Positions 4,588 to 42,038 of a DNA stretch of 64,000 nucleotides are shown in pieces. The position numbers were made by a program, and so were the translations under genes. Numbering within the stretch: the stretch's first letter is position 1; every line of letters begins with the position of its first letter. Source of the stretch: Caldilineaceae bacterium (GTDB lineage: Bacteria; Chloroflexota; Anaerolineae; Caldilineales; Caldilineaceae); contig OZ241342.1 in assembly GCA_965200385.1 (NCBI GenBank), forward strand, positions 2,979,880 to 3,043,879, in the 5' to 3' direction. A model generated the notes under the pieces. The model was given only the letters and a program-made list of their open reading frames with translations, did not search any database and was not told where the DNA came from.

Positions 4588-5699
4588 ACACCGTTCAGTC
4601 CGCGGCTGCCTGCCCTGCCGACCCCTTCCATCTGACGGGACAGGACCTACCGTATCGCACGCCGGACCTGCCGGGCACAGGCGGTCAAATCCGGGTATAT
4701 CCCCATGATTTCCGGGTCGTCGAAATTCCGGCCTATCAACCGGCGGGTACAGGCTGCCACCTGTACCTGACGTTGAGTCGGGAAGGACTGACCACGCCCG
4801 ACGTCGTGAAAATTCTGAGCCGGCACCTGGGTGTACCTCCGGCGGCCATCGGCTACGCCGGTCTCAAGGACAAGCACGCGCACACCACCCAGACCTTCAG
4901 CGTCCTGTGTGCAGATCGCGATCCCACCGCGGGTGTGGATCTGCAGGCTTGCCTGGAAGCCGACACCCCTTTTCAGGTGCACGCCATCAACTGGCACCGC
5001 AACAAGCTCCGGGCTGGCCACCTGTACGGCAATGCCTTTGAAATCCTGATCCGGCACCCGGTGTGCTCCCTGGCTACCGCCGAGGACCGGGCCCAAGCCA
5101 TTGCCACCCGTCTGCGCCGGCAGGGCCTGGCCAACTTTTTCGGCTCCCAGCGCTTTGGCCATGAAGGCCGCAACGTCCAGCAGGGCTGGCGCATTGTGCG
5201 CGAGGGCTGGCGCGAGCGGCGCCGCTGGCTGCACAAGCTGTTCGTCTCGGCCTACCAAAGCTATCTTTGCAACCAGTACCTGGCTCTGCGCCAGGCAGAA
5301 AACGGCCTGGACAACATGGTCCGGGGTGACGTGGCCCGCAAGCAGACGACAGGGGGCATGTTTGTCGTATCCGATCCGCAGCAGGACACCAAACGCCTGC
5401 AAGCAGGTGAAATCAGCTTTACGGCGCCCATGTTTGGACATAAGATGTGGACAGCCGAACAGGATGCGCAGGACTGGGAAACCCGCATTCTGGCGCAGGC
5501 CGGCCTGGAGCAGCATGACTGGAAACGGGATCGCATTGCCGGCACCCGGCGTACCGGGTTGCTGCGCGTACCGGATCTGGTCGTAACCCGCAGGCCGGAT
5601 GGCATCTGCCTGACTTTTTCCCTGCCCAAGGGCAGTTTTGCGACGACTCTGCTCCGCGAGATTATGAAGCCCCCGGGCAGGCCCTTCCCCCGTGCATAG
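4584..5699 (+). CDS. truD: tRNA pseudouridine(13) synthase TruD
   Basis: GLKDKHAHTTQ catalytic-Asp motif and TruD-like length. ATGA overlap with the upstream gene. Confidence 0.85.
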   Translation: MNTVQSAAACPADPFHLTGQDLPYRTPDLPGTGGQIRVYPHDFRVVEIPAYQPAGTGCHLYLTLSREGLTTPDVVKILSRHLGVPPAAIGYAGLKDKHAHTTQTFSVLCADRDPTAGVDLQACLEADTPFQVHAINWHRNKLRAGHLYGNAFEILIRHPVCSLATAEDRAQAIATRLRRQGLANFFGSQRFGHEGRNVQQGWRIVREGWRERRRWLHKLFVSAYQSYLCNQYLALRQAENGLDNMVRGDVARKQTTGGMFVVSDPQQDTKRLQAGEISFTAPMFGHKMWTAEQDAQDWETRILAQAGLEQHDWKRDRIAGTRRTGLLRVPDLVVTRRPDGICLTFSLPKGSFATTLLREIMKPPGRPFPRA

Positions 5700-5708
5700 G
5701 AAACGACC

Positions 5709-6374
5709 ATGGAAATTCCCGTTTTTCCCCTCAACACTGTCCTGTTTCCCGGTATGATCCTGCCCCTGCACATCTTTGAGGAGCGCTACAAGATCATGAT
5801 CAACATGTGCCTGGCGGATCAGAAGCCGTTTGGCGTGGTCCTGATCCGGGAAGGGGAAGAAGTCGGCACCATGGCCACTCCCCATCGCGTAGGCACCATG
5901 GCCGCCATCCGCAGTGCGGATCAGCTGGAAGACGAACGACTCAATATCGTTACGGTCGGCCTCAGCCGCTTTCGCATTCAGGAGCTCCTGACCACCCGCG
6001 CCTATCCTGCCGCCCGGATTGCCGATTACCCCATCCGGGTGGAAGACCAGACACGTTCCGAACAGCTGGCAGCGCGTGTGCGGCCCGCCTTTCTGGAATA
6101 TGTCGACCTGCTGGAAAAGGGCGCCAACCTCAAGCTCAAGATCAACGAAGTGCCCGAGGATCCCGAGACGCTGGCCGCCCTGATCGCCATTGCCATGCAG
6201 ATCGAACTGCGGGACAAACAGACGGTGATCGAGCGTACTACGGTCGAAGATATGCTGATCACCGAATTCAATTTCCTGTCCCGGGAAAAGATGATCCTGC
6301 AGTACGGCATCGACACCATGGACCAGCAGGATCGGTACCAGTTCGGCCCCACAGGGCAGATGTTTCTCAACTGA
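5709..6374 (+). CDS. LON N-terminal (substrate-binding) domain protein, no ATPase or protease part
   Basis: FPLNTVLFPGMILPLHIFEERYK is the typical Lon N-domain start. Only 221 aa. Confidence 0.75.
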   Translation: MEIPVFPLNTVLFPGMILPLHIFEERYKIMINMCLADQKPFGVVLIREGEEVGTMATPHRVGTMAAIRSADQLEDERLNIVTVGLSRFRIQELLTTRAYPAARIADYPIRVEDQTRSEQLAARVRPAFLEYVDLLEKGANLKLKINEVPEDPETLAALIAIAMQIELRDKQTVIERTTVEDMLITEFNFLSREKMILQYGIDTMDQQDRYQFGPTGQMFLN

Positions 6375-6528: not shown

Positions 6529-6602
<74 letters not shown>

Positions 6603-6649
6603 TTGGCCGTTGCGGTGCCTGTGGGTGCCCACGGTAGCAAAGCCGAGAT

Positions 6650-6889
6650 CGGGCCGAGTAGTACGCAAGGCCCCACTGCCAGAGAATCCTGTCCAGCGGC
6701 TGGAAGACAGGTCAGTGGATGCGGACGAACACCCCCCGTGAGCGGACGTACCAACGATCGATTCGGATCCAGTAGTACGTCCCGGATGCCCTCCGTTACC
6801 GGGGCGCACAAGGGGCACCCGTACGGGTGCAAGCCGGGTGGAACCGCGGAGCCATGCTTCGTCCCTGCAAGGATGAAGCATGGTTTTTT
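6650..6889 (+). promoter_or_regulatory. T-box riboswitch leader of thrS
   Basis: T-box sequence AAGCCGGGTGGAACCGCGG (6831-6849) overlaps the 5' side of a 13-bp terminator stem. AGTAGTACG boxes at 6656 and 6771. AGAGA motif at 6681. ACC (Thr) triplets at 6731 and 6797. Confidence 0.75.
6852..6889 (+). terminator. Intrinsic terminator of the T-box leader
   Basis: CCATGCTTCGTCC (6852-6864) pairs with GGATGAAGCATGG (6871-6883), 6-nt loop, followed by TTTTTT. Confidence 0.8.
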
Positions 6890-14899: not shown

Positions 14900-17341
14900 A
14901 TGCCCCAGCTCCAGAACGATCACCTGCGCATCCAGGTACACGACGCGACGGAAGCCGTCTGGTTCAGCGTAGGCCTCCGGGAACCGGACGGCACCTGGAC
15001 CGACATCCTGCTTTCAGGCGCCTGGGGCTCCTCCAGCATCTGGAGCCAAGACCAGGTTCCCCTGTGTGAAGATCCCGAGCTGGAGTGGCAGCCCGCGGTC
15101 GCTCCCCGGTCGGAACGGCAAACAGGAGTGTACCGTATGGTGACGGCCACGGCCGACCGCATCGTGCTGGAGGGCGGTTTCGGTTCCCATCAGGTGGCTA
15201 CTTGCCTGGCCCTGACCCCGGACCAGACCGTTCACGTCACTACCACGGTGCAGATCACGGAACCCACCCGTTTGGGCAAGTGTCTGAATCACCTGTACTT
15301 CGCTCCAGGCGGCAAGCTGGCCTACAGCTGTCTGCCCCTGGATTTCGCCTGGCTGCCAGCCCTGCATCAGCGACCCGAACACGTATGTGCGGATCACTTC
15401 TTCCGGGCGCCGGTGGCCATTGTCATGGCCCGTGGCTACTATGCCGCCCTGCTTCCGGATCTTGACCGTTTCGCCTCCGGTCAGGGCATGCAGTGCGCCT
15501 TGGACCTGCGGGTGACGGGCACGCTGCTGGAGGGACCACGGCTCTCCTACGGGTTCTGCCACAGTGAACCGGATGGCCATGTATATTTCGCCTATCGCCC
15601 CGCAACAGCACCGCGTTTCCACAGGGCCGAACTGACCTATGCCTTTGCGATCCTGGCAGGGCACAGTGATTCCGCGGCGCACGTCACCCAGCGCGTCACG
15701 ACACACCAGTGGCGAACGTACGGGCATCCCCTCATGCAGGATCCCAGGCCCCAGGTATTGCCTTTTGCCACCTATGGCCAACGCTACACGTTTCAGCATG
15801 AACTTCCTGCCAGCCTACGTACGGTCCAGCAGGCTGGCACGACGTGTATTGGCATCGAGAACCGCAGCCGACGCGGTGCGCAGTTCCATGCTTGGGAAAA
15901 TGACATGCACGTGGGCTACGGTCTGCACTACTACGGCCTGCGGCTGCCGAACCCTGAACTCCAAAACATCGCGGCGGGCATGCTGAACCTCATGCGCCAC
16001 GCGCCGCGGCGCCGGGGTGCGTTCCCCTGCATCTTCAACTTCGACACGGAACAATACGAAGGGTCCCTGTTTTGGACTGCCCGCAGTGCCGATGCCCGCC
16101 ACGGCTATGACACGGCGGCCATGGGCGTAACCATCTGGTGGCTGCTGCAATGGATCGAGGATTTTGCCGATCTCGATCGGGCCCCCTTGCTGGCCCTGGC
16201 CACGGCGTACTGCGACTTGCTCATGGCAGTGCAGCTGCCTTCCGGGGCCATTCCCACCTACTTGCAGCCCGATCTGACACCAGCGGCCCCGCTGCAGGAA
16301 AGTGCGACTACGGCCATCAGCGGTGCGGTCCTGGCCAAATGTGCCCACCTGGTTCGCAATCCGGCCTATACCCGGGCGGCCCTGCAGGCGGGATACTTCA
16401 TCGAGACCCACTGTCTGCCCGGACTCAATTTCAACGACTTTGAAACGTTCTATTCCTGCAGCCCCAAACCCCTGCACGCGATCGACTACTGGTCAGGCAT
16501 CCTGCCCCACAACAACCTGTCCATGGGCTGGGCCTGTGACATGTACCTGGCTCTGTACCAGCGTACGGGGGAGGAACTCTGGCTGGAATCCGGGCGCTAT
16601 CTGTTGAGTGTCCTGTCGCTGTACCAGCAGGTGTGGAATCCCTCACACCTGGCGGGGTACCTGTTTGGCGGCTTTGGCGTCATGAACACCGATGGTGAAT
16701 GGAACGACGGCCGCCAGGCCCGTTTCGTCTCCGTCTATGTCGACTATTACCTGGCCACGGGCCATACCGAATACCTGGAACGGGCCGTGGCCGCCTGCCG
16801 GGCGGCATTCGCCCTCATGGACATGCGCGAGAACCATGCAAACGGGATCAACGACGTGGTCATGCCCCATCTGGGGGCCGGTCTGGGGTATGCCCCGGAA
16901 AACATCCACCATGGTGGTGCGGATTCCGGATATGGCTGGTCCGGCATGAACTGGAGTGCGGCCGGGGGGCTGGCCGCCAGTGCCTACCTGGAACGGCATT
17001 TGGGCTCGGTATTCCTGGACATGGCACGGCGTACCGCCCATGCCCTTGACGGCGTGGCCGTACAGGTTGTGAACTGGCAGGAGGACGTCATCGAATTGCA
17101 GGTGCAGTCAACCCTGGACGCCTTGCCGCTACCCTTTGCCGAAGCACGCGAAATCGTGATCCGGGCCGGGGGCTGGGACTGGATAGACCAGGATCCGGAG
17201 GACTTCACCCTGATACTCAACGGAGAGCCCCCACTGCGGATCGAACCGGACGATCAGGAAACCGCGATCCGGTATCGCCTGCCCGCAACGGCCCGGCACG
17301 ACCATGCTGTCCCCTCTCCGGATAACCGACATACAGATTGA
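14900..17341 (+). CDS. Large hypothetical protein in the sugar-uptake operon (possible carbohydrate-active enzyme, family not recognised)
   Basis: 813-aa ORF starts 5 nt after the permease stop. No signal peptide. No motif I can name. Confidence 0.55.
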   Translation: MPQLQNDHLRIQVHDATEAVWFSVGLREPDGTWTDILLSGAWGSSSIWSQDQVPLCEDPELEWQPAVAPRSERQTGVYRMVTATADRIVLEGGFGSHQVATCLALTPDQTVHVTTTVQITEPTRLGKCLNHLYFAPGGKLAYSCLPLDFAWLPALHQRPEHVCADHFFRAPVAIVMARGYYAALLPDLDRFASGQGMQCALDLRVTGTLLEGPRLSYGFCHSEPDGHVYFAYRPATAPRFHRAELTYAFAILAGHSDSAAHVTQRVTTHQWRTYGHPLMQDPRPQVLPFATYGQRYTFQHELPASLRTVQQAGTTCIGIENRSRRGAQFHAWENDMHVGYGLHYYGLRLPNPELQNIAAGMLNLMRHAPRRRGAFPCIFNFDTEQYEGSLFWTARSADARHGYDTAAMGVTIWWLLQWIEDFADLDRAPLLALATAYCDLLMAVQLPSGAIPTYLQPDLTPAAPLQESATTAISGAVLAKCAHLVRNPAYTRAALQAGYFIETHCLPGLNFNDFETFYSCSPKPLHAIDYWSGILPHNNLSMGWACDMYLALYQRTGEELWLESGRYLLSVLSLYQQVWNPSHLAGYLFGGFGVMNTDGEWNDGRQARFVSVYVDYYLATGHTEYLERAVAACRAAFALMDMRENHANGINDVVMPHLGAGLGYAPENIHHGGADSGYGWSGMNWSAAGGLAASAYLERHLGSVFLDMARRTAHALDGVAVQVVNWQEDVIELQVQSTLDALPLPFAEAREIVIRAGGWDWIDQDPEDFTLILNGEPPLRIEPDDQETAIRYRLPATARHDHAVPSPDNRHTD

Positions 17342-18056: not shown

Positions 18057-18248
18057 CGGGATACGTCCAGGCAGGGACATACACTCCGGCCCCAAGGATG
18101 ACAAGAGACTCATGCCGCGTGCCGGGATGACACACCACAGCGACTGTAATACGATTTGGGCACTGACAGTCATGGGCTTGTACCCAACAACCAATTCCAA
18201 GATGGAAGATCTGTGGGGATCTATATATATTTGCCGATAGCAACTGTA

Positions 18249-19585
18249 GGGGGTTATATATGTACCCACACCACGCAGTGTAGACAGGAGAGGGCAAGCT
18301 AGAATAGGGTATGAACATAGAAGAGACAATGGTTTGCCGGGGCGTTACCTTACGGGTGCGACCGGGGTCCAAAAACAAGCACGACAAAGATGATGCGGAG
18401 CGGCGGGGCTTGTCGCAAGGTGTGGAACGAAGTATTGGCAATCTGTGAAAAGCGGTGGCAAGACTACAAGGCCGGTAAAGGCGATAAATCATCGGTTTCG
18501 TTCTTCTCTCTATGTAAGTTGTACGTACAAGTCAAGCAGGAATTGCCCTGGTTGGGCGCGTTGCCATCGAACACTGTGCGCTATACCGTAAAGCATCTGG
18601 CAGAAGCCTATAAGCGGTTCTTTGATGGCGCAGGGCGGCCGGTCTGGAAGCGGAAATGCAAGGACACGCCAAGGTTTACTGTGCCCGGTAATAGTAAGAT
18701 TAAGGGCAAGAAGATCTACATCCCCAAGCTTGGGTGGGTGAAGCTGACAGGCAAGAATCCGTACGCCGATTGTAAGCCCAAGCAGGCCACGTTCAAGTAT
18801 GAGGCGGGTAACTGGGTATGTGTCCATCCTGTACGAAGAGCCAGCCCCGCGCCCGGATAGACCTGCCAAGCCTATTAATCCTGTAGGCATCGCTCGGAAC
18901 GTGGGGCAAGTGGCATTAAGTACTGGTGATATGTACGAACTGCCGACGCTATTGGAGCTTGACGCCAAACTGCGCAGGTTGCAAAAGAAGTTAGCTCGTC
19001 AAGAGTTCAAGAGTAACGGGTGGCAATATACCAAACTACGCATACAAAAGGTGTACAGGGAGATACGGAATGTCATAAAGAACTGGTGTCACCAGGCCAG
19101 TCGCACCATTGCTGATATACACGATCTAGTTATCTTTGAAGACCTGAACATTCAGGGTATGACCAAGAGTGCCCGTGGCTCTTTGGAAAACCCCGGCAAG
19201 AATGTGGCTCAGAAAAGAGGATTGAATCGTGCTATCTTGCGCAGCGGGTGGGGGCGACTGGAACGGTATATGGCTTACAAGACTTATACAGAAAAGTATA
19301 GATCCGAAGTACACATCACAGCGTTGTCATAACTGCGGGGTAGTACGTAAAGCTAACCGCAAGTCCCAGTCTGTTTATCACTGCAGTAAATGTGATGTGG
19401 AAAAGAATGCCGACGTGAACGCGGCTTTAAACATACGGGACAAGTGGTTGGATAAGAGTATGGCGTCCGGGGACGGCGCAGCTGCAGGTGGAGATTGCAA
19501 CATTAGTTGGTCTGCGAAGCCTGAAAATGTATATGGAAAAGCATCACAGCCTGCAGGCGTGGTGTGAGTACGTATATAGTCCCCC
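18249..19585 (+). mobile_element. TnpB insertion element, copy A (decayed), with terminal inverted repeats and an 8-bp flanking direct repeat
   Basis: Left end GGGGGTTATATATGTACCCACACC. Right end GGTGTGAGTACGTATATAGTCCCCC. CAACTGTA at 18241-18248 and again at 19585-19592. Collinear nucleotide homology to 40706-42038. Confidence 0.8.
18311..19567 (+). pseudogene. tnpB: tnpB pseudogene (three frameshifts, RuvC-I Asp replaced by Ala)
   Basis: Four ORF pieces in frames 2/0/1/2. Extra bases relative to copy B near 18386-18388, 18814-18816 and 19297. GIARNVG here versus GIDRNVG in copy B. Confidence 0.85.
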
Positions 19586-19819
19586 AACTGTATTGGTCTA
19601 ACACTGAAATAGTGGTTCAAGGCTGGAAAACCCGGTTGCCTTGGGGAGCATGCCACTGCACGCAAGTCGTGCAACGGATTTCGGATAGGGTCGACAATCG
19701 GTGCGGATCGGCCTGTTGACAGCACAAGGCCGACCAGGGTGTGGTATCCAGATCGGCCGTGCCATGTGATGTTGTTGCCCAAGGGCAGGTCCCCTCAGTC
19801 CAAGGGGCAAAGTCCCATA

Positions 19820-21302: not shown

Positions 21303-21386
21303 TAGGAAGGGTGGGATTTGAACCCACACGAGGGTTTGCCTCGGCGGATTTTAAGTCCGCTGCGTCTACCGTTCCGCCACCTTCCC
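21303..21386 (-). tRNA. tRNA-Leu (anticodon TAA)
   Basis: Minus-strand read: GGGAAGG TG GCGG...GGACTTAAAATCC (loop CTTAAAA), long variable arm, T-arm GTGGGTTCAAATCCCAC, acceptor 3' CCTTCCT A. Confidence 0.9.
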
Positions 21387-32614: not shown

Positions 32615-32764
32615 GTGTGTTGCTCCTGAATGTGTGCTGAGCGCGACGCGCACGTTGAGTCCATGCGGCTCGCTTACGCTTGCCTCAGACTGAAATTGAT
32701 ATGGGTTATATACGAGCAGACACCGCTGGCAGAACTGGTGCCGGGAAGCTGTGCATGGTTCCTG

Positions 32765-33300
32765 TCATCCCCCCGGGGTCAGCATGGTATAGGTGAGACG
32801 CTTGCCGATAGCCCCCTGCACCAGGAGCCGCAACTGCTTTTGTGTGTCCAGCGGCCGCACGTTGTGGCGCCCTGTGCATGCATTGATGTAGCGGTGCCGA
32901 CGCTTGAGACTCATGTGGTGGTACACACCCATGTAACCCCGTTTGCGCAGGGCCCAGAACGACTCCAGACCGTTGCTGTGGGCCTGCCCCCGAACACATT
33001 CGCCTACGCTGTGCCGCACCACCGCGCGCGTCCGCTGCACTTGGCGGTAGGCCGTGGCGTCGTCCGTGTACACCAGGGCCTCGCGTGCCGTGCGCACATA
33101 TACGAACTGGCGCAGCATCCGTCCTGGCCACCACCGCGGCGTCTATCCGGTGGGTCGGTCGGTCCTTGACCCCGGCCACGGCCGTAACCAGCGCAGGGGC
33201 TTGTCCCGCACTGCCGGCGCATAGACTCCACGCACACCCCGGAACCTCGTGCCGTCCAGTTTCGGGTTCCAGGCCACCGGCACGAACAGGTCGATGCTGG
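32765..33300 (-). pseudogene. IS1595-family (ISXO2-like) DDE transposase, frameshifted C-terminal two thirds
   Basis: ALVYTDDATAYRQ...VRHSVGECVRGQAHSNGLESFWALRKRGYMGVYHHMSLKRRHRYINACTGRHNVR matches the DDE_Tnp_IS1595 pattern. Upstream parts (IDLFVPVA..., VKDRPTHRIDAAVVARTD) lie in two other frames. Confidence 0.7.
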
Positions 33301-33499
33301 CCGCGAACAATCTGGCGCCGCGCGCATGTCCAGACCGGTGTCCGCCTGCATCAGGATGCCCAGCCGCTGCAGAGTTGCCGGCGGGTTGTGCGCTGTTCTG
33401 CGTTGCCCGCAAGACGCACGGGAATGTCTGTGGCACACCCGGCACGCGCCGGACTATGCGTTCCAAGGCGGGCTCGCGGTCAAGCACAGGAAATATCCG

Positions 33500-33640
33500 A
33501 AGATACACAACCTGCACAAGCTGGCTCCGCTGATGGACGGCTTGATGACCTTGGCCCTGGAACCCGGACGCAACCGGAACGTCACACCTTTGTACGTTTT
33601 CCTGTTCTTGCTCGGTGATACCCTGGTATACCCTTGCTTG
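33500..33640 (-). pseudogene. tnpB: tnpB 5' remnant
   Basis: GVTFRLRPGSRAKVIKPSISGASLCRLC parallels GITLRVRPGSRTKHNKMMRIAGACRKVW of copy B. Nucleotide-level similarity by eye. No start codon retained. Confidence 0.5.
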
Positions 33641-33730
33641 CCGTCTACACCCCATCCCCTGCCTCGCGGGTGAATTCGTATGTAATTCCCTTCGGATAGT
33701 TTGCCAGGTGGGAGAAAGTCCCAACAGCAG

Positions 33731-33759: not shown

Positions 33760-33886
33760 AAATATAAGGCAGGGCACAGCCTCTGGCAAGTATATAGTGA
33801 CTCTTCCGGCTTTTCTTCGTTGCACACACTAGATTGACCAGACAGGGACTGTCCCTGGATTGCAGGACAGGCACCGAAGGTGTGTA

Positions 33887-40625: not shown

Positions 40626-40767
40626 GCCTGTCTGCAAACTCAAAAGAAGCGAGTCGACCCACTGTCTTGAGAACGTAATTGTTTGAACAAGCAAGCAATT
40701 AAGAAGGGGACTATATACGTACCCACACCGCGCAGTGTGGACAGGAGAGGGCAAGCTAGAATAGGGC

Positions 40768-42021
40768 ATGAACATAGAAGAGATTATGGTGCACCGGGGT
40801 ATCACCTTGCGGGTGCGCCCAGGCAGTAGAACCAAGCACAACAAGATGATGCGCATTGCCGGGGCCTGCCGCAAGGTTTGGAATGAGGGACTGGAAATCT
40901 GCGAGAGGCAATATCAAGAATTCAAGGCCGGTAAAGGCGATAAACCTAACGTTACACACTTCGGACTGAACAATCTGTATGTACAAATCAAGCAGGAGTT
41001 ACCCTGGTTGGGTGAGCTGCCGGGCCATACTGTGCGCTACACCATGAAACACTTGTCGGAAGCTTATAAGCGGTTCTTTGATGGCGCAGGGCGGCTGGTC
41101 TGGAAGCGCAAATTCAAGGACGCCCCAGGGTTTACTGTGCCCGGTAATATTAAGATTAAAGGCAAGAAAATCTACATCCCCATGCTTGGGTGGGTGAAGT
41201 TGACAGGCAAGAATCCGTACGCCGGTTGTAAGCCCAAGCAGGCCACATTCAAGTATGAGGCAGGCAACTGGTATGTGTCCATCCTGTATGAAGTGCCCGA
41301 CACACGGCCGATCAGACTGGGTAAACCTGTTAATCCTGTAGGCATTGATCGCAACGTAGGACAGGTTACGCTAAGTACAGGCGATATGTATGAACTGCCA
41401 AAGTTGTTGGAACTAGACGCCAAACTGCGCAGGTTGCAAAAGAAGTTGGCCCGCCAACAGTACAAGAGCAACGGTTGGCAACATACCAAGCTACGTATCC
41501 AGAAGATATACAGGGAGATACGCAATGTCACAAAGGACTGGTGCCACCAGACCAGTCGTACCATCGCTGACATACATGATCGAGTCATCTTTGAGGACCT
41601 GAACATTCAGGGTATGACCAAGAGTGCCCGTGGCTCCAAGGATAAACCCGGTAAGAGTGTAGCTCAGAAAAGAGGCTTGAATCGTGCTATCTTGCGCAGT
41701 GATTGGGGACGGCTGGAACGGTATATGAGTTACAAGACTTATACAGAAAAGATAGATCCCAAGTACACGTCACAAAAGTGTCATAACTGTGGGGTAGTAC
41801 GTAAAGCTAACCGCAAGTCCCAGTCTGTTTACCATTGCAGTAAATGTGATGTTGAAAAGAACGCTGACGTGAATGCGGCTTTAAACATCCGGGACAAATG
41901 GTTAGGTAAGAACATGGCGTCCGGGGACGGCGCATCTGCGGGTGGAGATTGCAACACTAGTTGGTCTGCGAAACCTGAAAATGTATCCGGTGTAGCATTA
42001 CGCCCTGCGGGTGTGGTGTGA
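40768..42021 (+). CDS. tnpB: TnpB RNA-guided endonuclease (IS200/IS605-family OrfB)
   Basis: RuvC-I GIDRNVG, RuvC-II VIFEDLNIQGM, zinc ribbon CHNCG...CSKC, RuvC-III NADVNAALNI. N-terminal RVRPGS...ACRKVWN. Confidence 0.9.
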   Translation: MNIEEIMVHRGITLRVRPGSRTKHNKMMRIAGACRKVWNEGLEICERQYQEFKAGKGDKPNVTHFGLNNLYVQIKQELPWLGELPGHTVRYTMKHLSEAYKRFFDGAGRLVWKRKFKDAPGFTVPGNIKIKGKKIYIPMLGWVKLTGKNPYAGCKPKQATFKYEAGNWYVSILYEVPDTRPIRLGKPVNPVGIDRNVGQVTLSTGDMYELPKLLELDAKLRRLQKKLARQQYKSNGWQHTKLRIQKIYREIRNVTKDWCHQTSRTIADIHDRVIFEDLNIQGMTKSARGSKDKPGKSVAQKRGLNRAILRSDWGRLERYMSYKTYTEKIDPKYTSQKCHNCGVVRKANRKSQSVYHCSKCDVEKNADVNAALNIRDKWLGKNMASGDGASAGGDCNTSWSAKPENVSGVALRPAGVV

Positions 42022-42038
42022 AAACGTATATAGTCCCC
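41860..42038 (+). ncRNA. Predicted omega/right-end RNA scaffold of TnpB (guide would continue into 42039 onward)
   Basis: By analogy with characterised TnpB loci, the RNA overlaps the tnpB 3' end and right end. This stretch is highly conserved with copy A and has a hairpin with compensatory changes (42001-42013 vs 19547-19561). Confidence 0.35.

Follow-up and report, generated by a model that had tools for sequence, protein, structure and literature searches.

TnpB is a nuclease directed by a guide RNA that derives from the 3' end of the tnpB gene, and its accepted role is to re-cut the emptied donor site beside a fixed motif. Elements of the IS1595 family (ISfinder; Siguier et al. 2009) are prokaryotic relatives of the eukaryotic Merlin transposons; those of the ISNwi1 subgroup end in 'ggnnatTAT', in agreement with the ends described here. 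The IS200/IS605 elements have neither terminal inverted repeats nor target duplications and insert beside a fixed motif of 4–5 nt (PMC13565253). Altae-Tran et al. (PNAS 2023; PMC10691335) linked six branches of TnpB (DDE-1 to DDE-6), all with inverted terminal repeats, to DDE transposases, and described solo TnpBs inside the same ends as 'mobilized by transposases in trans'. A 2026 review names IS630, ISL2 and IS1031 as the DDE partner families and calls such associations rare (PMC13565253). Within the IS1595 family, ISApl4 has AT-rich 8-bp repeats and forms pseudo-compound transposons (PMC12561309). Here we describe a 988-base remnant (32703–33690, minus strand), in which a decayed IS1595-type element is fused with the beginning of a TnpB element, in a stretch of 64,000 nucleotides from a Caldilineaceae bacterium (GCA_965200385.1, contig OZ241342.1, positions 2,979,880 to 3,043,879), hereafter the window. 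Taken with the TnpB-only elements of the window and with related loci from other organisms, the remnant suggests, at a probability that we put at roughly three in four, that these TnpB-only elements of about 1.3 kb are non-autonomous DDE transposons moved in trans by an IS1595 transposase, the remnant itself being a fused and collapsed compound or adjacent pair.

Read on the minus strand from 33690 downward, the remnant begins with GGGAATTACATACGAATTCACCCGCG, and at 32703 it ends with the inverse of GGGTTATATACGAGCAGACACCGC, so that both ends lie where the original prediction, made from the letters of the window, had placed them. They form an imperfect inverted repeat of about 30 nt, of the same type as in both TnpB-only elements of the window, a likeness that had also been predicted. 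The left repeat (33659–33690, minus strand; GGGAATTACATACGAATTCACCCGCGAGGCAG by direct read, with about 30 nt paired to the right end) is similar to the left ends of TnpB elements and to the left repeat of a second IS1595 relic, at locus L165 (z 5.8–6.9). The right repeat, on the IS1595 side (32703–32734, minus strand), is the inverse of GGGTTATATACGAGCAGACACCGCTGGCAG and, counted by hand beyond the run of Gs, has 15 of 18 positions in common with the left repeat of the L165 relic; from the transposase stop codon to the end of the remnant we count 62 nt, one fewer than previously stated. The end motif GGGNWNTAYATACG, with up to one mismatch, occurs five times in the window against 0.39 expected, a number reached in none of 100 shuffles. 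In its short form the repeat under discussion reads GGGGAnTTATATAC.

Inward of the left repeat lies a TnpB-type leader followed by about 22–26 N-terminal tnpB codons (…KGVTFRLRPGSRAKVIK…; 33541–33658, minus strand), recognised both by alignment and by profile. The first 150 nt of the remnant (33690–33541) align with the left ends of the two TnpB-only copies of the window, A and B, at z = 10.7–10.9, as high as in none of 1000 shuffles, and TnpB profile positions 3–24 match 33606–33541 with an independent E-value (i-E) of 0.0012 in a small search space. The original prediction of about 50 TnpB-like codons was therefore right about the N-terminal likeness and too generous about its length; beyond about 33540 the likeness in nucleotides is no longer significant. 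It could be argued that the remnant is an internally deleted IS1595 element with no TnpB part at all, its left end resembling TnpB elements through left-end sequence that the two kinds of element share. The first 150 nt indeed score 61 against the left end of the L165 relic and 58–59 against TnpB left ends, and the first 95 nt match both about equally well and do not discriminate. Offsets 95–160, however, give z 5.7–6.5 against copies A and B (0 of 500 shuffles) and only 3.0 against the relic, and they encode VTFRLRPGSRAK, the conserved N-terminal strand of TnpB covered by the profile match, at the right spacing from the repeat. Relative to the L165 relic, moreover, the probable transposase N-terminus is displaced by about 190 nt away from the repeat, and outside the repeat no significant similarity links the left end of the relic with those of the TnpB elements. 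On this evidence a remnant made of IS1595 sequence alone appears improbable.

The following 160 nt or so (33382–33540, minus strand) form a junction with no significant match to the TnpB elements or to the IS1595 relic. Its best local match is the subterminal right end of the TnpB copy at L164 (z 3.5, 3 of 500), with weak scores against the other four copies, and a scrap of a tnpB 3' end may lie at 33434–33465. Beyond the junction, 33318–33381 (minus strand) probably corresponds to codons ~6–28 of an IS1595 transposase: it is colinear in nucleotides with offsets 121–190 of the L165 relic (z 4.4, 2 of 1000), and the N-termini of full-length relatives find it in tblastn as weak colinear matches (E about 1–3).

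The transposase homology proper was delimited with a profile of 308 positions built from 53 full-length relatives. It comprises positions 164–307, the C-terminal 145 residues, in two reading frames: positions 164–197 at 33108–33209 (minus strand; i-E 7e-7, tblastn E 1e-6 to 4e-8) and positions 197–307 at 33118–32786 (i-E 2.5e-45 in hmmsearch), the latter within an open reading frame of 117 aa (32765–33118, minus strand) that matches Pfam PF12762 at E=2.3e-13 over profile positions 69–149 of 153. Since the two parts are in different frames there has been at least one frameshift, and the predicted frameshifted IS1595-type transposase is thus borne out. Against NCBIfam NF033547 the open reading frame scores 49 bits, below the cut-off of 75 because the C-terminal half alone remains. 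Of the DDE triad it retains the second aspartate (VYTDD) and the glutamate (NGLESFW); the part that held the first aspartate is gone. The DDE part of the remnant is 76–92% identical in nucleotides to the L165 relic. Of the N-terminal half a weak nucleotide trace is all that is found, the protein profile detecting none of positions 1–163 in the remnant, and roughly codons 70–163 (about 95), including the first catalytic aspartate, are missing through an internal deletion. Without a zinc-ribbon/helix-turn-helix region and with an incomplete D-D-E triad, the remnant is a dead IS1595 derivative and not a functional member of the family.

No second, internal IS1595 inverted repeat is detectable inside 32703–33690. 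A 9-mer upstream of the remnant (ACTATATAC, 33790–33798) was considered as the left repeat of a nested IS1595 and set aside as a chance match (z 1.3 or less against IS1595 left ends, no matching duplication). The string 'YPKGITYEFTR', read over the left repeat and similar to transposase residues 16–27 (E about 2), was likewise rejected, because in real elements the N-terminus begins about 100 nt past the repeat. The alternative raised at the outset, an 'unrelated' IS1595 nested in a TnpB copy, is at odds with two element types that share their ends.

The window holds two TnpB-only elements, 78–87% identical to each other. Copy A (1333 bp, 40706–42038, plus strand) carries an intact tnpB gene (40768–42021, 417 aa) between 25-nt inverted repeats GGGGACTATATACGTACCCACACC; copy B (18249–19584, plus strand, or 18241–19592 with its duplications) has its tnpB in four frame pieces and is bracketed by a perfect 8-bp duplication, CAACTGTA, at 18241–18248 and 19585–19592. 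The protein of copy A matches PF01385, PF07282 and PF12323 and scores 212.7 bits against guided_TnpB (cut-off 100), and falls below the NCBI cut-offs for IS200- and IS607-type TnpB. Its RuvC residues D194/E276/D367 and zinc-finger cysteines C338/C341/C357/C360 are invariant in our alignment A4, and it is presumably an active nuclease. No DDE homology was found inside the TnpB-only elements, which have a GC content of 49–52% in a host genome of 60–61%. About 45–50 distinct TnpB paralogues are present on the 3.79-Mb contig. A scan of a genome collection of species representatives with the copy A protein gave no match. In one protein of this genome (P0090), the N-terminal read-through …AWCEYVC|IGGYIRTHTT… corresponds to a right end followed at once by a left end, a possible sign that the genome contains copies in tandem or ends that have been joined.

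Additional copies belong to the same organism, or to an assembly (sample ERZ25068762) that includes the window locus as contig L002. Two of them are flanked by perfect 8-bp duplications, CAACCAAT at L003 and AATTATAT at L164. Other organisms contribute TnpBs that are 38–41% identical to that of the window and have the same architecture: L084, with repeat GGGGATTACATAC… and duplication AAAGATGA; L085, with GGGAATTATATATC… and CTTAGTCC; and L171, with GGGAATTA(C/T)ATACAAAAGTCACAT and AAAGTATT. Across the clade, GGG(G/A)nTTA(T/C)ATA inverted repeats of 24–30 nt are accompanied by perfect AT-rich 8-bp duplications in six of eight elements, from at least four organisms; a single perfect 8/8 match has a probability of 1.5e-5 by chance. 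The duplications are 77% A+T overall, and the three from the 61% GC genome 18/24 (P=4e-4), while in the 4–6 nt just before the eight duplications our own reading of the flanks finds no common motif. By this footprint the TnpB-only elements are DDE-type transposons, and none has ends of the IS200/IS605 type. Relatives of TnpB in metagenomes at 30–35% identity include none with these repeats, which confines the feature to a sub-clade. As separate observations, CAAC opens two of this genome's three duplications (CAACTGTA, and CAACCAAT at L003:9931–9938), a sample too small to speak of target preference, and 2.5 kb from the L171 element lies a large gene with Csx12/Cas9 C-terminal-like domains (L171:7735–9221). 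A 400-aa open reading frame ahead of a DDE fragment at L001, considered as a TnpB, proved to be a spurious antisense frame.

The same ends are found on IS1595 elements. We examined 80 IS1595 loci from named metagenome-assembled genomes (MAGs) and 80 TnpB loci, and those IS1595 loci that have clear repeats mostly begin alike, with GGG(G)nTTATATA. The termini of intact relatives are of the type GGGG(A/C)TTATATA(C/G) and come with 8-bp duplications at L060 (left terminus GGGGCTTATATAC… / GGGGCTTATATACTTG…) and at L077 and L078, the last two, like L081, starting with GG(T/G)GATTATATAG…; ends of the same type occur at L065, as a perfect 32-nt repeat GGGGCTTATATACAATCC…, and at L042/L061, as a perfect 30-nt repeat GGGAGTTATATAGC…. 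The intact IS1595 termini, the comparison on which the original prediction had staked its hypothesis, are thus not different from those of the TnpB elements. In all, five independent IS1595 elements of 1.26–1.78 kb, each with the IS1595 gene only, have these termini, three of them with perfect 8-bp duplications, and the intact relatives possess the N-terminal zinc ribbon that the remnant has lost. Plasmid searches yielded nothing beyond generic 'IS1595 family transposase' entries and ordinary TnpB matches.

A more direct association was found in a MAG of the Rhodothermales, OY760427.1. It encodes an intact IS1595 transposase (L061:4659–5619), a second, split copy of that gene (L042), and an intact TnpB 39–41% identical to that of the window, in element copies that are 97% identical to each other; the ends of its tnpB units are GGGAATTATATACGTGAGTGACC, with GGGAGTTATATATCACAGTGCC internally, and an IS1595 deletion derivative of about 170 bp is attached to a tnpB unit. 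IS1595 and TnpB partners alike have a GC content of 51–52%, in a genome of 59%. At both loci an arrangement of IS1595, about 460–490 bp of different DNA and a TnpB unit is bracketed as a whole by an 8-bp duplication, CATACTAT at L042 and TAACAAAT at L061, and the single parts have no duplications. The two loci are unrelated and differ in arrangement. Such compounds are the footprint that would be expected if one transposase paired an IS1595 end with the end of a TnpB unit. Independently of this, the Rhodothermales IS1595 at L042 has about 690 bp beyond the transposase stop codon (5620–6313).

Shared repeats, six perfect duplications and two compound loci thus lend support to the hypothesis first proposed, that the TnpB-only elements are non-autonomous elements related to IS1595. 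According to this model, an IS1595 transposase made elsewhere would bind the shared terminal repeats of about 25–30 bp, excise the TnpB element and insert it by cut-and-paste at AT-rich sites with an 8-bp staggered cut; TnpB, which is not a transposase, would have no role in the chemistry of transposition. Since IS1595 and TnpB-only elements share ends, one end from each type could act together and give rise to compound elements. The remnant, in the simplest view, would have been such a compound or an adjacent pair, afterwards collapsed by deletions. What is left of the TnpB-only element is its left end, with the repeat, a leader and the opening ~25 codons; on the IS1595 side the right repeat survives, but the left repeat, the leader, some 95 codons of the interior and an unbroken frame are gone.

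A different history, in which a single two-gene ancestor (repeat, tnpB, IS1595 transposase, repeat) suffered internal deletions and the TnpB-only elements are its transposase-less derivatives, has several features of the remnant in its favour. The remains of both genes are co-oriented between one matching pair of repeats without detected internal repeats, the possible tnpB 3' scrap lies about 50 nt ahead of the probable transposase N-terminus, and two deletions would be enough, against three for a neighbouring pair; two-gene elements with DDE transposase and TnpB have, furthermore, been described for other DDE families (PMC10691335). Yet no element with tnpB and IS1595 in one repeat pair was found among the 80 IS1595 and 80 TnpB loci, where the two genes occur as separate units or in compound insertions and the decayed remnant alone joins them within a single inverted-repeat pair. 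The Rhodothermales partners are separate units with repeats of their own, the L165 relic contains a single gene, that of IS1595, whose start codon follows the repeat after about 105 nt, and the support for the tnpB scrap is marginal. We therefore consider a two-gene ancestor unlikely, if still deserving of serious thought.

It is also conceivable that an IS1595 element landed by chance in or beside a TnpB element and was fused to it by deletion, TnpB being moved by some other enzyme, such as an IS256-family transposase or Y1 TnpA acting in trans. Insertion sequences often nest, an ISAzo13-family gene adjoins the TnpB copy at L164, and an end of the type under discussion occurs at L171:758, 168 nt after an IS256-family transposase gene; IS256 elements, too, make duplications of 8–9 bp. 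Such a coincidence seems very improbable when set against the repeats of the same type that both the L165 relic and the remnant, on its IS1595 side, carry at the canonical distance from the gene, against the five independent IS1595-only elements with these termini, three of them with 8-bp duplications, and against the compound insertions, in which an end from IS1595 is paired with one from TnpB. At L164 the target duplication of the TnpB copy does not enclose the ISAzo13 gene, and IS200/IS605 elements lack inverted repeats and duplications altogether (PMC13565253).

Besides the remnant, two IS1595 relics are present in the same assembly. That at L165:15036–15927 starts with GGGGATTACATACG / GGGGATTACATACGAG / GGGGATTACATACGAGTATACAC, about 105 nt before the start of a transposase preserved over codons 3–257 in three frames; a third, at L164:12821–13121, is poorer. 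In three of the four neighbourhoods examined such relics lie within 1.5–7 kb of TnpB copies. Two details of these loci may be recorded: a 65-bp tandem duplication within the L165 relic (15697–15790, with GGTTCGTACATGCGCGTACAGCGCAGG at 15697 and 15762) and the position of the ISAzo13-family gene at L164 (11297–12487), between the TnpB copy with its own duplication and the IS1595 relic.

Several observations weigh against mobilisation of the TnpB-only elements by IS1595. Little of the remnant is specifically TnpB-like, and at the protein level that stretch is weakly supported when taken on its own. No 8-bp target duplication surrounds the remnant, whose flanks are TATCCGAA and ATATCAAT, although this would be expected of an old or rearranged copy. 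Copy A, to which an 8-bp duplication had originally been ascribed, has none at 40706–42038, the duplication being that of the copy at 18249–19584, and the TnpB element at L165:9939–11256 has none either. Repeats are absent from two close TnpB relatives, L167 and L168, both situated in conserved gene neighbourhoods. Most of the 80 IS1595 loci have no recognisable repeat of this type, the strict pattern being present at both ends in seven. At L171 (591–758) an IS1595-type end (GGGGATTACATACGAAAGCAACG, minus strand at 758) stands 168 nt past the stop codon of an IS256-family gene (PF00872) that runs off the locus, which could reflect nesting of one element in another or an additional type of partner. 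On the 3.79-Mb contig, searches with the remnant open reading frame and with the reconstructed relic protein returned no intact IS1595 gene of the lineage among the best matches, and the driver seems to be extinct in this genome. The three IS1595 relics, finally, are heavily decayed and have a GC content of 62–66% (66% in the DDE part of the remnant), as against about 50% in the TnpB copies, some of which have kept perfect duplications; from this host-like composition and decay the relics look older than the copies they supposedly moved, and probably belong to an earlier wave.

The 3' ends of the elements bear on how TnpB might function in such a setting. Over the last ~250 nt of nine elements a common stem can be drawn that closes at CC(G)TGAAA, with eight pairs changed on both sides, although the elements represent few lineages and hence few independent events; an Rfam search of the tnpB 3' region gave no family match. 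From CC(G)TGAAA to the element end there are 51–65 nt in the repeat-bearing elements (41974–42038 in the window and the equivalents in alignment A5), whereas in the repeat-less L167 and L168 the gene end follows after about 22 nt, and it is there that homology between the two stops. The right repeat lies between the motif and the flank, and looks like an add-on after the RNA scaffold. For other DDE-linked TnpBs the guide has been assumed to be flanking DNA (PMC10691335). One may speculate that in these elements the scaffold instead ends before the right repeat and a guide of 16–20 nt corresponds to the repeat, or to fixed sequence just inside it, and so targets IS1595-type ends, a proposal that we consider doubtful. 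The targets would then be the element's own left end, sister copies, the autonomous partner or the joined ends of circular intermediates. If true, the role of such a fixed guide would differ from the site-restoring 'homing' of IS200/IS605 elements, and it would explain the use of an RNA-guided nuclease in a transposon without a common insertion-site motif.

Some further features were noted along the way. On the 3' side of the repeat-less tnpB of L168 (Dadabacteria, P0124), two direct copies of GTTGCAATAAGCGGGCGTTTGCCCGGTTCTATTCCCAAG occur about 27 nt apart (L168:7200–7330), which may be a mini-array or a repeated element; this tnpB has the same gene neighbourhood in the contigs shown. The window itself contains a tRNA gene (6529–6602, plus strand), followed by a T-box leader at 6636–6869 (85 bits, Rfam threshold 93) ahead of a long open reading frame, and another tRNA gene at 21303–21386 (minus strand).

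Compared with the DDE-TnpB branches of Altae-Tran et al., the elements described here have the same symmetrical inverted repeats, a tnpB 3' end near the transposon end and solo TnpBs in matching ends; they differ in the IS1595 partner, which was named neither there nor in the 2026 review, in their variable 8-bp duplications, and in that no pair of repeats enclosing both genes was found except in the fused relic. With the IS1595 family they share a DDE transposase of the PF12762/NF033547 type, terminal repeats, AT-rich 8-bp duplications and compound transposons, but here the majority of elements bounded by such ends encode TnpB without a transposase, and the remnant lacks the zinc ribbon, the first aspartate and a duplication. 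The IS1341-type elements, tnpB-only members of IS200/IS605, are likewise about 1.3 kb long, with a single tnpB, many copies per genome and a conserved, covarying 3' stem at the place predicted for the guide RNA scaffold; unlike them, the elements here have repeats and duplications and no common insertion-site motif, and the TnpB of copy A is below the IS200/IS607-type cut-offs. Fanzor genes on DDE transposons offer a parallel as genes for RNA-guided nucleases in cut-and-paste transposons with inverted repeats and duplications, although their carriers are eukaryotic and mostly have fixed short duplications usable as a recognition motif (PMC13565253), in contrast to the compact prokaryotic TnpB and the variable 8 bp seen here. 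Like miniature elements of the MITE kind, finally, the TnpB-only elements have the repeats and the duplication length of an autonomous partner, lack a transposase, and outnumber and outlive that partner; MITE-like elements are short and non-coding, however, whereas these carry a large and often intact gene.

The principle that TnpB can reside in DDE transposons, with solo TnpBs moved in trans, was thus already described in 2023. The pairing with IS1595, the compound insertions and the variable duplications of 8 bp seem not to have been reported before. 'IS1595' is absent from the main text of PMC10691335 (its supplement being outside this count), and no paper connecting TnpB to IS1595, to ISXO2 or to the name of the Pfam family came up in full-text literature searches.

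These observations indicate that a group of TnpB elements are passengers of IS1595 transposases and do not follow the usual IS200/IS605 route, which would add IS1595 to the few DDE transposons in which the ancestor of Cas12 is known to travel. Annotation as IS200/IS605 is the routine for solo tnpB genes of this kind, and their ends contradict it. The homing model is put to the test by insertion into variable AT-rich 8-mers without a common neighbouring motif, the more so as cut-and-paste excision already leaves a break. In the Rhodothermales genome OY760427.1 a living pair is available, both partners being intact, whereas in the Caldilineaceae genome the passengers, in about 50 copies of which some are intact, would have outlived their driver, of which three wrecks remain.

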